Below are positions 540 to 6,454 of a DNA stretch of 64,000 bases, in pieces. Numbering within the stretch: position 1 is the first letter of the stretch; the number at the start of each line of letters is the position of its first letter. The notes under the pieces are model-generated. The model was not told the DNA's origin. It was given only the letters and a program-made list of their open reading frames with translations, and made no database searches. Location: the IMG/VR virus record IMGVR_UViG_3300043427_002668, one strand, 5' to 3'. This DNA comes from a virus (taxonomy: Duplodnaviria; Caudoviricetes). The translations under genes were made by a program, and so were the position numbers.

Positions 540-648
540 CGTTCTGGTGACGATACCTCAAATACTTGTTGACTCACTGAATAAACGGAGTTATGTCGAA
601 ACTCCTTACATCCGCAGGAAAACTCTGCGAGAAAATATAGAGGTACTT

Positions 649-2121
649 ATGTTTAAATCCGCTTTCGCAGCAACCCTTGCTGCAACTCCACTGGTCGCTG
701 GTGCTGCGTTCGCAGAACCCTATGGCACTTATGGACCTTATGTAGAATCTCAAGTTACGAGCATCTCACAGTTCTCTGATGTTCGTCCTACCGATTGGGC
801 ATATCAAGCACTCAACAACCTTGTAGAGCGTTATGGTTGTGTTGCTGGTTATCCTAACGGCACTTATGGTGGTGGTCAGTCAATGACCCGTTATGAGGCA
901 GCTGCTCTTCTGAATGCTTGCCTGGATCGTGTGACTGAAGTTACCGATGAACTGAAGCGTCTTCAGGCAGAGTTCGCTCAAGAACTTGCCGTTATCCGTG
1001 GTCGTGTAGATAAACTGGAAGCACAAGTCGGTCAACTGGAAGCAACTCAGTTCTCTACCACTACGAAACTTCGTGGTGAGGCTACCTTTGTTCTGGGTGG
1101 AGTTCCTGGACTTGAAACTAATGACGGTGGAAACGTTGGCGACACCGCATTTAATTATGATGTCCGTCTGAACTTCGATACCAGCTTCACTGGTAAGGAC
1201 CTGCTCCGTACTCGTCTGCGTTCTTCTAACTTCAGCACGGATCCTTTTGCTTCTTCGGGTTCCCTTTTCAAACTGGATAAAGCAGATAACACTTCTAGCG
1301 AAGTTGGCGATAACGTAGTTATTGATCGTCTGTATTATCAGTTCCCTGTGTTTAACGACACTACCACCATCACTGCTGGTGCTAAAGTCCGTAACACTGA
1401 GATTGCTTGGGTTCCTTCCGCATATAAGTCGGAAATCCTTGACTTCTTTGCTACTGCTGGTACTCCTGGTGTATATAATAAGGCACTCGGTGCTGGTTTC
1501 GGTATTCAGTATGCTGGTAATGGTGGATTTGTTGCTGGTCTGAACTATGTCGCTCAGGACGGTGATAACTCTTCTACTGGCGTCTTCAATGAAGATGGTG
1601 CTCTGAACCTGCTGGGTCAAGTCGGTTATCGTGGTAAGAACTGGGGTGTTGGTGTTGGATACCGCTATGGTACTGAAGGCACCCGTCCTCGCTCCTACAA
1701 CGGTCTCCTGGGTGCTACTGGTACTCTTGTAGACGGTCAGACTTCTAATGGTCTTGCAGTTAACGCTTACTGGCAACCCGAACAGTCTGGTTGGATTCCT
1801 TCAATCAGTGCTGGTTACGGTTACAACTGGGTTAATGGTACTACTGGTGTTACTGATGCTACTGATAGTCAGTCCTGGATGGCTGGTCTTCAGTGGAGCG
1901 ATGTCTTCCTCAAGGGTAACTCTGCTGGAGTTGCTGTGGGTCAAGCACCTACTGCTGATACCAAAGGTGTAGATGACGCCACTCTTGTTGAAATCTTCTA
2001 CAAGTTCCAAGTGTCTGATAACATCAGCATCACTCCTGCTCTGTTCTACGTTGATAACAATCAGCGTTATCAGGACTCTGCTAAGTGGGGTGGTGTAATC
2101 CAGACCAAGTTCACGTTCTGA
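649..2121 (+). CDS. cyanobacterial SLH-domain outer-membrane porin (SomA/OprB-like)
   Basis: Signal peptide MFKSAFAATLAA..., SLH motif FSDVRPTDWAYQAL, coiled coil, beta-barrel ending in C-terminal Phe. GAGGT RBS precedes ATG 649; the tracked start at 547 is too early. Confidence 0.9.
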   Translation: MFKSAFAATLAATPLVAGAAFAEPYGTYGPYVESQVTSISQFSDVRPTDWAYQALNNLVERYGCVAGYPNGTYGGGQSMTRYEAAALLNACLDRVTEVTDELKRLQAEFAQELAVIRGRVDKLEAQVGQLEATQFSTTTKLRGEATFVLGGVPGLETNDGGNVGDTAFNYDVRLNFDTSFTGKDLLRTRLRSSNFSTDPFASSGSLFKLDKADNTSSEVGDNVVIDRLYYQFPVFNDTTTITAGAKVRNTEIAWVPSAYKSEILDFFATAGTPGVYNKALGAGFGIQYAGNGGFVAGLNYVAQDGDNSSTGVFNEDGALNLLGQVGYRGKNWGVGVGYRYGTEGTRPRSYNGLLGATGTLVDGQTSNGLAVNAYWQPEQSGWIPSISAGYGYNWVNGTTGVTDATDSQSWMAGLQWSDVFLKGNSAGVAVGQAPTADTKGVDDATLVEIFYKFQVSDNISITPALFYVDNNQRYQDSAKWGGVIQTKFTF

Positions 2122-2938: not shown

Positions 2939-3514
2939 ATGTTTAATTTTTTCAATAAAAAAGAAGAAAATACTATGGAGGTTAAAATGCGTAGCGAAGG
3001 TTATCAAATTCCTCAAGTAGAATTTGTGTTCCGTGAGGCAGGTGAGTTTGTAACTCGCACTTCTTCCGAACTCTTCAACGGAAAGCGTGTTGTGATTTTC
3101 TCACTTCCTGGTGCATTCACTCCTACTTGCTCTGCATACCAACTCCCTGGTTTTGAAGAGAAGTTTGAGGAATTCAAAGCACTTGGTATTGATGAAATCT
3201 ATTGTATCTCTGTGAATGATGGTTTCGTGATGAACGCTTGGGCTCAAGACCAAAATATTCAAAACGTAAAACTGATTCCCGATGGAAATGCATACTTCAC
3301 CCGTTCGATGGGTATGCTCGTCCGTAAGTCAAATCTTGGCTTCGGTGAGCGCAGTTGGCGTTACGCTGCTGTGGTAGATAATGGTGTGATTGAGAAACTA
3401 TTTGTTGAAGCAGGTCAGCGTGATAATGCTGATACTGATCCTTATGAGGAAACAACTCCAACAGCAGTTCTGGATTATGTGAAATCTACAATTCTAGAAA
3501 AAGAACTTGTGTGA
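2939..3514 (+). CDS. type II peroxiredoxin (Prx5-like)
   Basis: LPGAFTPTCS, CISVNDGFVM and RSWRYA motifs. Confidence 0.92.
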   Translation: MFNFFNKKEENTMEVKMRSEGYQIPQVEFVFREAGEFVTRTSSELFNGKRVVIFSLPGAFTPTCSAYQLPGFEEKFEEFKALGIDEIYCISVNDGFVMNAWAQDQNIQNVKLIPDGNAYFTRSMGMLVRKSNLGFGERSWRYAAVVDNGVIEKLFVEAGQRDNADTDPYEETTPTAVLDYVKSTILEKELV

Positions 3515-3520
3515 TTTAGA

Positions 3521-3545
3521 AGGAGGGTTAAAACCCTCCTTTTTT
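3521..3545 (+). terminator. intrinsic terminator
   Basis: AGGAGGGTT-aa-AACCCTCCT plus T5. Confidence 0.85.
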
Positions 3546-3575
3546 AATAAATAAATTTACTGAATAGGTAAAGAT

Positions 3576-4277
3576 ATGAAAATAGATCTCCATAATTTCT
3601 TTTTACACTACGATCCTAAAAATCCAAAGCACGTTGCAGCAGTAGAGCAGTTTGAAAAGGATTTGGAATCTAAAAATCCAGACTTGCTTGATGATGAAAC
3701 GAGTTGGATAAAAATTTATAGATCAAAAGTAGAACCAGTAGTTCCAGGAGTTCTTAATGTTCCTTGGTTCCCACAAACAGATAATTACAGAGATGCACAA
3801 AGAACCTGTAATTCATCTTCTTGTGCGATGTGTCTAGAGTATTTCAAACCAGGCACACTTCAAGGAGCAACAGGCGATGATGCCTATATTCAAAAGGTAT
3901 TCGCAATTGGTGATACGACTGATCACACCGTCCAAACAAAAGTTTTGGAAGGTTATGGTATTAAGTCACGATTTGTTTACAATCTTTCTTTTGCTGATCT
4001 TGATCGTGAGCTTGCCGCTGGGAGACCTGTCGTTATCGGGATTCTTCATCGCGGTTCTTTATCTGCACCTACTGGCGGGCACTTACTTGTAGTGATCGGT
4101 AAGAAAGGTGATGATTATGTTGTAAATGATCCTTATGGTTCTCTCAACGATGGATATACGGGACCAGTTACAAATGGTAAAGGTGCTGTATATAAGAGAT
4201 CAGATCTAATGCAACGATGGTTGGATAAAGGAAAAGATAGAACTGGATGGGGTCGTATTTTTGATGCAAAAAAGTAA
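3576..4277 (+). CDS. peptidase C39-like protein
   Basis: QTDN...TCNSSSCAM (catalytic Cys), GGHLLVV (His) and VNDPYG (Asp). ATAAATA late promoter at about 3548-3554. Confidence 0.8.
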   Translation: MKIDLHNFFLHYDPKNPKHVAAVEQFEKDLESKNPDLLDDETSWIKIYRSKVEPVVPGVLNVPWFPQTDNYRDAQRTCNSSSCAMCLEYFKPGTLQGATGDDAYIQKVFAIGDTTDHTVQTKVLEGYGIKSRFVYNLSFADLDRELAAGRPVVIGILHRGSLSAPTGGHLLVVIGKKGDDYVVNDPYGSLNDGYTGPVTNGKGAVYKRSDLMQRWLDKGKDRTGWGRIFDAKK

Positions 4278-4310
4278 TTAGTTCTATTCCAGTTAAAGGG
4301 GTAGAACTGA
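4268..4310 (+). other. putative -1 programmed ribosomal frameshift signal
   Basis: Slippery heptamer A_AAA_AAG 4268-4274 directly before TAA, then an 11-bp stem AGTTCTATTCC/GGGGTAGAACT at 4280-4308. Confidence 0.7.
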
Positions 4311-4747
4311 TAAAAGTATTTGAAGGTTGTAAATTAAGAGCATATCCAGATCCTTTGACTGGAGGTGCTCCAATCACAATAGGTTGGGGTTCTACTAGCA
4401 GAAAAGATGGAACTGGATTTATAATGGGTAATACCATTACACAACAGGAAGCAGATGATCTGTTAATGTTTGATATTGAAACAAAATTTATTCCTGCACT
4501 ACAAAAAATCCCTTATTGGAATGAGATGAATGAAAATCAACAAGGAGCACTTCTTTCTTTTGCTTATAATCTTGGTGCTAATTTCTACGGGGGTCCCAAT
4601 TTTAATACCATAACTAGAGTATTAAAGAATAAGGAATGGGATAAAGTTCCTGATGCTTTATATCTTTACCGAAATCCTGGAAGTAATGTAGAGGCAGGAT
4701 TAGCAAGAAGAAGAAAAGCAGAGGGTGATCTTTGGAAAAGAACTTAA
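4274..4747 (+). CDS. GH24 lysozyme domain, probably translated as a -1 frameshift extension of the C39 protein
   Basis: The frame is open from 4265: ...ELIKVFEGCKLRAYPDPLTGGAPITIGWG... ARRRKAEGDLW. Catalytic E-x8-D lies upstream of the tracked TTG at 4355, and there is no ATG/GTG/TTG before it. Confidence 0.85.
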   Translation, partial: VISSIPVKGVELIKVFEGCKLRAYPDPLTGGAPITIGWGSTSRKDGTGFIMGNTITQQEADDLLMFDIETKFIPALQKIPYWNEMNENQQGALLSFAYNLGANFYGGPNFNTITRVLKNKEWDKVPDALYLYRNPGSNVEAGLARRRKAEGDLWKRT

Positions 4748-4784: not shown

Positions 4785-6029
4785 ATGGATGAATTTCAAC
4801 TTGAAGAACTGCAAAAGTCAAATCAGCAAATACAGGATACTATCCCTTATGATCCTAATGCTGCATCTAGGTATCCTAATGGATATACACCTGTAGGAAT
4901 TGGTGAAGATAATACTCCAGTCGAACAGGTTGATCCTGTAAACGTTCCTGAAGTAGAAGTAACATCTCCAATATTAAACGACATTATTCCTCAGGACGTT
5001 TATGGGTCTTCTGGGGACAATATTTCCTTTGCGAATAGAAATATTCCAGAGATTGAAAATACAAGAATAGATTCAACAACTCCTATAAGAAACGCAAATG
5101 TCGTTATTAGCAGTTTACCTGGGAATAATATTGTTCCTGATAGTTCTAGCAATAGTGATGGACCACCTATCGAAGAAGATGTGGTAGATCCTCCAGTTGA
5201 TCCAGAGCCTCCTGTAGACCCCCCAGTTGATCCTGAAGATCCACCACCACCTCCACCACCTGAAGAACCTGAAGATCCAGAGGAACCTGAAGAACCTGAA
5301 GAACCTGAAGATCCAGAGGAACCTGAAGAACCTGAAGAACCTGAAGATCCAGAGGAACCAGAGGAACCAGAAGATCCTGAAGATCCTGAAGATCCAGAGG
5401 AACCTGAAGAACCTGAAGATCCAGAGGAACCTGAAGATCCAGAGGAACCTGAAGAACCTGAAGATCCAGAGGAACCTGAAGAACCTGAAGATCCAGAGGA
5501 ACCTGGTGGGGGTAATCCTGGTAATGATAAAGATGTAGGCAATTCCCCTTGGGATGGTGAGACAGGAGCATCAGACAATCCAGGCAAAGGTAATCACCAA
5601 GATGGACAAGATCCCGAACCAAACCAACCTCCAGGCGATTCAAAGAATGATGGAGGACAAAATAATGATCCAAAAGATCCTCCTGGTAATGGAGGAAATG
5701 CTGGAAATGGTGGAGGAAAACCTGATGAACAGCAAAATAATGGATGGGGGAACGGAGATGATGATGCTCCAGGTAATTCCCTCAATCACAATAACGCTGA
5801 AAATGATCAGTCTCCAAGTGAACATTATGATGATTTTGTTGGAAGATTCTTAGAAGAAAATCCAGTAGATCTAAATGTTATTAATACTCACGAAATTCCT
5901 AACGAGCATCCTCTTGATAATTTTGATACTCATATTCCTGATGTTGTATTAGATAATCTCCCAGAGGTTCACTTCGATCACTTTGATCTTCCTACAGATC
6001 ATTTCGATCACGGACCTCATAGTATGTAA
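4785..6029 (+). CDS. acidic low-complexity Pro/Glu-repeat protein
   Basis: 414 aa with a PEEPED array, Gly/Asn-rich segment and His/Asp-rich C-terminus. ATAAATA lies upstream. Confidence 0.75.
   Translation: MDEFQLEELQKSNQQIQDTIPYDPNAASRYPNGYTPVGIGEDNTPVEQVDPVNVPEVEVTSPILNDIIPQDVYGSSGDNISFANRNIPEIENTRIDSTTPIRNANVVISSLPGNNIVPDSSSNSDGPPIEEDVVDPPVDPEPPVDPPVDPEDPPPPPPPEEPEDPEEPEEPEEPEDPEEPEEPEEPEDPEEPEEPEDPEDPEDPEEPEEPEDPEEPEDPEEPEEPEDPEEPEEPEDPEEPGGGNPGNDKDVGNSPWDGETGASDNPGKGNHQDGQDPEPNQPPGDSKNDGGQNNDPKDPPGNGGNAGNGGGKPDEQQNNGWGNGDDDAPGNSLNHNNAENDQSPSEHYDDFVGRFLEENPVDLNVINTHEIPNEHPLDNFDTHIPDVVLDNLPEVHFDHFDLPTDHFDHGPHSM
5259..5504 (+). repeat. coding tandem repeat of 9-nt units (CCTGAAGAA / CCTGAAGAT / CCAGAGGAA)
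   Basis: Directly visible; encodes PEE/PED triplets. Confidence 0.95.
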
Positions 6030-6358
6030 GGATACGCAATACCTTCATTTAACATTCTTTCATTTACAGTGACTGGATCTCCAACACAATAAAGAACTCC
6101 AAGTATTCTTCCGTACTTGTCTTCTTTATGTGTTTCGATAATCCAGTCACCTTCTCTTGCAAGTTCTTTTTCTAACCAAAGTCTTGCATCAATACCTTTT
6201 TTCTTTTCTTCTAAGTCTTTAGTTCTTGTCTCTGCTGCATCAATATCTTTGAGACGAACTCTTTGTCTGAGTGTAATGCTAAATCCTAAATCAATATCAA
6301 CGTCAACAGTGTCTCCATCAATGACCCTGTGAATCTTCTTTATTTTGTACTGATACAT
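6017..6358 (-). CDS. thermonuclease (SNase-like) family nuclease
   Basis: RVIDGDTVDV, RVRLKDIDAAE and DKYGRILG motifs. ATG 6358 has an AGGA RBS; an alternative start at 6451 adds a hydrophobic N-terminus. Confidence 0.85.
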   Translation of the reverse strand: MYQYKIKKIHRVIDGDTVDVDIDLGFSITLRQRVRLKDIDAAETRTKDLEEKKKGIDARLWLEKELAREGDWIIETHKEDKYGRILGVLYCVGDPVTVNERMLNEGIAYPYIL

Positions 6359-6454
6359 TTTCCTGATTTGCGATGAGTAGGATTTTGTAGATAGCCCAAG
6401 CAACACCAACCAAACAAATACCAAGAAGAATATTAACAGACCAAACGACATCTT

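Follow-up and report, generated by a model that had tools for sequence, protein, structure and literature searches.

A probable programmed −1 ribosomal frameshift joins a C39-like peptidase to a start-less lysozyme in T4-like cyanophages

Several described genetic systems resemble the locus analyzed here. The Escherichia coli dnaX gene (tau/gamma) carries the slippery heptamer A_AAA_AAG with a stem-loop a few nucleotides (nt) downstream, and yields two products with a common N-terminus; this heptamer is very shifty in E. coli, owing to tRNA-Lys(UUU) being the only tRNA-Lys there. In the IS3 family (IS911, IS150), the orfA-orfB pair often uses the same heptamer together with a 3′ structure, the downstream open reading frame (ORF) lacks an efficient start, and the OrfA-OrfB fusion is functional. 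Among phages, the lambda tail assembly chaperone G/GT and T7 gene 10A/10B are conserved −1 shifts, each yielding one short and one long protein that share their N-terminus and are made in a set proportion, and some cyanophage lysins (the 405-amino-acid (aa) protein of ACG-2014f, S-CREM1, phrog_3617) hold a peptidase and a lysozyme domain in one in-frame polypeptide. Here we analyzed 64,000 nt (hereafter the window) of the virus record IMGVR_UViG_3300043427_002668, in which the gene for a C39-like peptidase abuts, in the −1 frame, a GH24 lysozyme sequence without a start codon of its own. Most likely, this lysozyme is produced solely by ribosomes that have slipped back one base at the end of the peptidase gene, a situation shared with some 74 distinct relatives, among them the model phage S-PM2.

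Compared with these systems, the locus combines familiar parts in a different way. The dnaX shift truncates its product (gamma) and has an established Shine-Dalgarno (SD)-like stimulator; here, the shift would add a whole enzyme domain, the 0-frame stop adjoins the heptamer, and the G-run on its 5′ side is not specific to such junctions. The IS3-family orfA-orfB pair is the closest topological analogue, although it belongs to another protein family and another biology, and its 0-frame stop usually lies some codons downstream instead of adjoining the heptamer. The lambda and T7 shifts concern structural or chaperone proteins and not a lysin, whereas the in-frame cyanophage lysins involve no recoding, and that of S-CREM1 has the reverse domain order. 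These in-frame proteins show that a peptidase-lysozyme fusion is a functional unit. The locus is a predicted canonical dnaX/IS3-type −1 cassette in a new and widespread gene context, unannotated in GenBank. A possible earlier lysin needing a frame change was reportedly described by Shearman in 1994 from a Lactococcus phage; it belongs to a different phage group and is a different enzyme. A full-text literature search, with subscription journals largely outside its scope, turned up no account of a lysin made by frameshifting in either cyanophages or T4-like phages. The PRFect paper (PMC10885494) counts lysins with the genes in which a frameshift is known, citing a 1994 Lactococcus phage study.

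We consider it highly probable that ribosomes at the locus (Table 1) undergo programmed −1 frameshifting of the classical bacterial type, with tandem tRNA-Lys slippage on A_AAA_AAG stimulated by a hairpin. In this mechanism, ribosomes translating the peptidase ORF would meet the heptamer while the hairpin, 2–5 nt downstream, resists unwinding, and the two tRNA-Lys would let go of AAA-AAG and pair with AAA-AAA instead. Ribosomes that have shifted would then proceed in the −1 frame (…FDAKK-VISSIPVKGVELIK…) to produce a protein of 233 + 157 = 390 aa, comprising the N-terminal module (N-module), the C39-like peptidase and the GH24 muramidase; unshifted ribosomes would terminate at the next codon and release the 233-aa peptidase alone. 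The shift would be the sole route both to expression of the lysozyme and to its N-terminal module. Within this scheme, we infer the shifting itself, its efficiency and a fixed product ratio.

Table 1 Features of the lysin locus and its surroundings (window coordinates).
Feature	Position	Strand	Remarks
0-frame C39-like ORF, 233 aa	3576–4277	+	Ends GAT GCA AAA AAG TAA; helical N-module of ~50 aa and papain-fold cysteine peptidase
N-terminal module, residues 1 to ~52	3576–3731	+	Also N-terminal in stand-alone lysozyme genes of split-type relatives
G-run GGATGGGGT	4245–4253	+	14 nt upstream of heptamer
−1 frame TGA	4262–4264	+	Shuts −1 frame just 5′ of shift site
Putative slippery heptamer A_AAA_AAG	4268–4274	+	0-frame register
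−1 continuation, 157 codons and stop	4274–4747	+	Short linker (VISSIPVK) and complete GH24 lysozyme domain
0-frame stop TAA	4275–4277	+	Adjoins heptamer directly
Putative stimulatory hairpin, 14 base pairs (bp)	4277–4311	+	11-bp core 4280–4290/4298–4308, 7-nt loop
Catalytic Glu of lysozyme	4322–4324	+	Motif E-x8-D
Catalytic Asp of lysozyme	4349–4351	+	Motif E-x8-D
Thr of lysozyme catalytic motif	4376–4378	+	TIGWG
Terminator-like hairpin and T-run	3520–3545	+	Arms AAGGAGGG / CCCTCCTT, read directly from sequence; closes upstream peroxiredoxin gene
Late-promoter-like AATAAATA	3546–3553	+	22 nt upstream of ATG; resembles T4-type late promoter
Cyanobacterial-type porin	547–2121	+	SLH and OprB
Peroxiredoxin	2939–3514	+	Redoxin/AhpC-TSA; upstream neighbor
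Acidic ORF, 414 aa	4785–6029	+	Immediately 3′ of lysin locus; long Pro/Glu/Asp repeats (PEEPED-like)
Staphylococcal-nuclease-like protein	6017–6451	−	

The −1 frame is open from 4265 up to its stop at 4745–4747. Because the TGA shortly before the shift site closes this frame, the lysozyme frame can be entered only between 4265 and the Glu codon. The first ATG, GTG or TTG of the −1 frame is TTG 4355, 3′ of both the catalytic Glu and the catalytic Asp, which bears out the claim of an earlier sequence-only reading of this DNA that both residues lie upstream of any such codon; re-reading also confirmed the positions it had given for the peptidase ORF, the heptamer, the 11-bp stem, the two catalytic residues and the G-run. 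Three hallmarks of frameshift sites were present at the locus, namely an in-register heptamer, an overlapping −1 ORF without a start and a 3′ structure supported by covariation; the optional upstream SD-like stimulator, a dnaX feature, was not found. The heptamer alone is not above chance in the window (38 copies versus 38.0 expected), and for this reason the weight of the case comes from the comparison with related loci.

We compared 231 loci encoding both halves, collected from GenBank phages and through three IMG/VR scans with the lysozyme half, the peptidase ORF and the ACG-2014f fusion as queries. The lysozyme abutted the peptidase ORF in the −1 frame at 110 loci (75 distinct junction sequences) and in the +1 frame at none (0 loci, 0 distinct junctions); the two were separate genes at 95 loci (61 distinct junctions) and in-frame fusions at 26 (18 distinct junctions). 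Three of the separate junctions were re-read as −1 junctions with long linkers, giving corrected counts of 78 distinct −1 and 58 distinct split-gene junctions. An in-register X_XXY_YYZ heptamer at most 4 codons from the 0-frame stop was observed in 74 of the 78 distinct −1 junctions (72 A_AAA_AAG, one A_AAA_AAA and one T_TTT_TTT, the last in S-CAM7), and in 0 of the 58 distinct split-gene junctions (Fisher p = 1e-29, before the count correction). In all four heptamer-less −1 junctions, the stop overlaps a start codon, ATG or GTG (ATGA/GTGA). The codon 5′ of AAA is GCA, GTA, ATA or ACA, so that the amino acid varies (A/V/I/T) while the third-base A is invariant; the presumed shift site is conserved at the nucleotide level, not at the amino-acid level. 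A stop immediately follows the heptamer in 40 of the 44 distinct junctions of the first census, and the linker between heptamer and lysozyme varies in sequence and changes its length by whole codons, with the −1 frame always open. The sequence-only reading had proposed a programmed −1 frameshift giving a peptidase and a peptidase-muramidase, and this comparison of 231 loci lends strong support to that proposal.

No ATG, GTG or TTG precedes the Glu codon in 49 distinct −1 junctions, which argues against separate production of the lysozyme, whether by non-canonical initiation (CTG 4307, ATA 4310) behind AAAGGGG or by termination-reinitiation past the peptidase stop. In favor of such a route, a purine-rich K-G codon run (AAAGGRG) lies just 5′ of the Leu-Ile codons, and the ATGA or GTGA overlaps of the heptamer-less relatives imply that coupling occurs in the family. 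The purine run, however, is the 3′ arm of the hairpin. The candidate codon stands just 5 codons ahead of the catalytic Glu and differs among relatives (CTG, CTA, CTC, CTT, TTA, TTG), so that initiation at CTG 4307, which the sequence-only reading had weighed as a competing explanation, comes down to a Leu codon varying as CTN/TTR with no conserved start. Since separate initiation would also leave the invariant heptamer, its register and the covarying 5′ arm unexplained, we regard it as very unlikely.

We then evaluated the hairpin. In the window it has a folding free energy of −17.1 kcal/mol (z = −7.1), and 0 of 200 shuffled sequences were equally stable. Its 3′ arm falls in the conserved G-V/I-E-L codons of the lysozyme, and its 5′ arm, located in the variable linker, tracks the 3′ arm. 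Of the 71 distinct heptamer junctions tested, 67 (94%) had an unbroken stem of 8 bp or more (median 11) that began 2–8 nt past the heptamer; by the same measure, such stems occurred in 18% of shuffled sequences, in 26% of the regions following the stop of split-gene peptidases and in 22% of in-frame fusions. The stems fall into several unrelated families with, in all, 39 distinct 5′-arm 8-mers (such as AGTTCTAT, GCCAACTA, CAACACCA and GACATCAC), and arm pairing averaged −13.3 kcal/mol for native combinations versus −7.1 for swapped ones, a native value matched by 0 of 10000 permutations. A MAFFT alignment of all stem families was out of structural register, and pair counts were taken from one family instead. 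In the family to which the stem of the window belongs (11 sequences, S-PM2 among them), 97.5% of cells were paired and 4 of the 11 pairs showed compensatory double changes, which 0 of 500 shuffles matched; sliding the partner by 1–3 columns reduced pairing to 29–50%. As these hairpin counts were drawn from related sequences, they are not probabilities, and the independent stem families bear the argument. Conservation of the heptamer and covariation of the hairpin in homologous loci, both of which the sequence-only reading had singled out as a check on its proposal, were thus observed together.

The same fusion protein could also arise through transcriptional slippage, if RNA polymerase added one A within the A6 run (or one U within the T8 run of S-CAM7) and some messenger RNAs encoded the in-frame fusion. 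The shift site is indeed a homopolymer run, S-CAM7 has a run of eight, and natural A7 in-frame variants imply that run length changes at the DNA level. Such slippage, however, needs neither the terminal G at heptamer position 7, nor the strict 0-frame register, nor a covarying hairpin 2–8 nt on the 3′ side, and A6 is short for it, efficient bacterial polymerase slippage requiring runs of about 8–9 or more. We therefore judge transcriptional slippage unlikely as the source of the fusion, S-CAM7 with its T8 run being a more plausible case than the A6 junctions. In S-CAM7 (L086:1690-1760; L251, L252), T_TTT_TTT stands in register within the T8 run, at the very junction where the others have the A-run, and is accompanied by its own 8-bp hairpin (GTAGAACC/GGTTCTAC); this replacement of one slippery run by another speaks for the ribosomal frameshift. 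At the RNA level, the sole metatranscriptome match was a 178-nt contig inside the lysozyme, not reaching the A-run.

We also considered that the arrangement might stem from a mistake in sequencing or assembly, or from a fusion gene decaying into a pseudogene, since one missing homopolymer A would give exactly such a picture and A7 in-frame variants exist. Against this, the same frame arrangement recurs in 74 distinct junctions from many samples, and the lysozyme is full length with its catalytic motif, never in the +1 frame and never with internal stops. The S-PM2 junction is identical in the original record (Sanger-era) and in a resequenced deletion mutant, the T8 junction is common to three S-CAM7 isolates, and contigs from two other studies (X3, X9), 1.3–1.6% divergent from the window, span 4268–4277 without indels. 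A sequencing error at the predicted shift site is excluded by S-PM2, S-CAM7 and these independent metagenome contigs, which also answers the concern of the sequence-only reading about a 1-nt error; error or decay as the origin of the arrangement is extremely improbable.

Natural variants of the junction were also informative. The sequence-only reading had treated in-frame homologues, and homologues with their own ATG, as contrary to a frameshift; such homologues do exist, yet they are exactly those without the heptamer or with A7, and on that account they support the frameshift. In five IMG/VR contigs (L187-L191), A7 replaces A6 and results in an in-frame fusion that is exactly the predicted trans-frame protein (…FDVKK-VE…), with the hairpin kept; these A7 runs may be real variants or homopolymer miscalls of those assemblies. 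The in-frame fusions of ACG-2014f (L085:1009-2226), of L169-L172, which are closely related to it, and of L192 retain GCA/GTA AAA AAG. Behind this heptamer come TCT GA and a GC-rich hairpin (GGAGGG/CCCTCC), and the −1 frame of these loci stops after one codon (V), so a −1 shift there would yield the peptidase alone, in the dnaX topology. No heptamer was found in eleven more distant in-frame junctions. S-SRM01, L225, L236 and L231 form a series, from the heptamer, through the heptamer with an ATGA/GTGA overlap, to loss of the heptamer with GTGA. Two further arrangements were observed among the relatives. S-CREM1 (L087:1159-2340) has a single 393-aa ORF in the reversed order of lysozyme, N-module and C39-like peptidase, and in L008, L021, L036, L052 and similar IMG/VR loci the start codon of the lysozyme gene overlaps the peptidase stop (ATGA), and the gene encodes a different N-terminal segment, ~48 aa long (MTIKFIDA…).

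The programmed frameshift is strongly supported because nucleotide-level conservation of the heptamer, the exclusive −1 register, the absence of start codons and a covarying hairpin come together across 74 distinct junctions. Several points count on the other side. The A6 run could in principle allow RNA-polymerase slippage with the same protein resulting. Sporadic GTG or TTG codons occur in the −1 frame of 19 distinct junctions. The G-run GGATGGGGT, which the sequence-only reading had put forward as an SD-like stimulator, did not hold up in that role: it codes for an invariant GWGR motif, and it is no evidence for a stimulator because anti-SD pairing is equal in frameshift (−6.40 kcal/mol) and non-frameshift junctions (−6.37 kcal/mol). 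Folding energy alone likewise does not discriminate, the 70 nt that precede the Glu codon giving −17.8 in split-gene and −15.7 in frameshift loci; split-gene linkers fold as stably because they are GC-rich Ala/Pro coding sequence. The folding-energy control was replaced by the position-specific stem, swap and covariation tests described above.

We investigated the encoded proteins with Pfam, PHROG families and structure prediction. The first ORF matched PF13529 (Peptidase_C39_2) at 50.5 bits (cut-off 24) over residues 60–187, and the −1 frame matched PF00959 (Phage_lysozyme) at 80.9 bits (cut-off 22.3) over profile positions 2–125 of 125; the latter is the only PF00959 match in the whole 95.9-kb parent record. 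The lysozyme domain is full length and 70–78% identical to those of relatives. An AlphaFold model of the peptidase ORF from the single sequence had a predicted local distance difference test (pLDDT) score of 40.7, and the prediction was hence repeated with a 35-sequence alignment, which raised the pLDDT to 86.7 and revealed a helical N-module followed by a papain-like domain. The best solved-structure matches of this model are C39-like peptidases, namely 3erv and PCAT/ComA peptidase domains (6mpz and 5xe8 among the fold matches), and residues C83, H169 and D185 are invariant across the 35 homologues. Both domains look active, with their catalytic motifs intact. The family phrog_3617 (405 aa) spans both halves, while phrog_10051 and phrog_7 are annotated endolysin; because of these annotations, the lysin context points to peptidoglycan as the presumed target of the predicted enzymes. 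The locus may encode the lysis enzyme, with a virion-associated role as an alternative.

The N-module has no Pfam family, even at E = 10. It shares 52% identity (E = 9e-15) with the N-terminal part of the lysozyme that has its own gene at the split-type locus L019, and a second tblastn match to the N-module is present in most split-type loci. These observations suggest that a start-less lysozyme is tolerated since the fusion would supply the N-module that split-type lysozymes carry themselves.

In GenBank, the lysozymes of S-PM2 and S-CAM7 are annotated as a short 'putative lysin' starting far 3′ of the catalytic residues. The annotated starts of S-PM2p157 (L004:2457-2675) and S-PM2d154 (L250:1157-1375) lie ~200 nt downstream of the catalytic Glu, and the S-CAM7 lysin is annotated as a fragment of 72 to 90 aa.

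The window originates from a freshwater T4-like cyanomyovirus, whose parent IMG/VR record of 95.9 kb is 48% complete by CheckV estimate. Its closest cultured relatives are Kyanoviridae (S-PM2, S-SRM01, DSL-LC02/03) at ~70–77% nucleotide identity, and its DNA was detected in 19 runs from 15 studies, chiefly freshwater metagenomes. The surroundings of the locus (Table 1) include a porin, a peroxiredoxin and a staphylococcal-nuclease-like protein. The extremely acidic 414-aa ORF has no Pfam family, and its conservation is limited to a few close relatives. No holin was identified adjoining the locus, the adjoining genes being those of the peroxiredoxin and the acidic repeat protein. As the hairpin and T-run upstream end the peroxiredoxin gene, the lysin locus would start its own unit. 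A promoter and terminator pattern scan called nothing relevant, and this terminator-like hairpin was not among its calls. The T4-type late promoter consensus is TATAAATA, and 36 of the 74 loci of the frameshift type have NATAAATA or TATAAATA no more than 120 nt upstream. Together with AATAAATA in the window, this upstream motif fits late expression of the lysin locus, although it is suggestive only.

T4-like cyanophages are major agents of picocyanobacterial mortality, and their lysis genes are poorly understood. A programmed frameshift would explain why truncated 'putative lysin' annotations without catalytic residues have persisted, as with S-PM2p157 since 2005 and likewise in S-CAM7. The S-PM2p157 coding sequence (CDS) should be joined to p156 via the −1 shift, and annotation pipelines should join peptidase and lysozyme CDSs. 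The ~74 distinct variants of heptamer and hairpin add to the few conserved −1 cassettes listed from bacteria and phages, and form a useful set for asking how stem sequence, spacer (2–8 nt) and an adjoining stop codon tune frameshifting. For the phages themselves, the frameshift predicts that a bifunctional peptidase-muramidase and a free peptidase are made from a single locus. More speculatively, the junction may be an evolutionary switchboard at which related phages express these two enzymes from two genes with their own N-modules, by ATGA/GTGA coupling, through a −1 shift that extends the protein, or as an in-frame fusion that has kept heptamer and hairpin and would be truncated by the shift (dnaX-like). 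The frameshift might then act as a tunable valve for the ratio of peptidase alone to bifunctional lysin, one that could respond to translational state (tRNA-Lys modification, nutrients, light) and help to time lysis.

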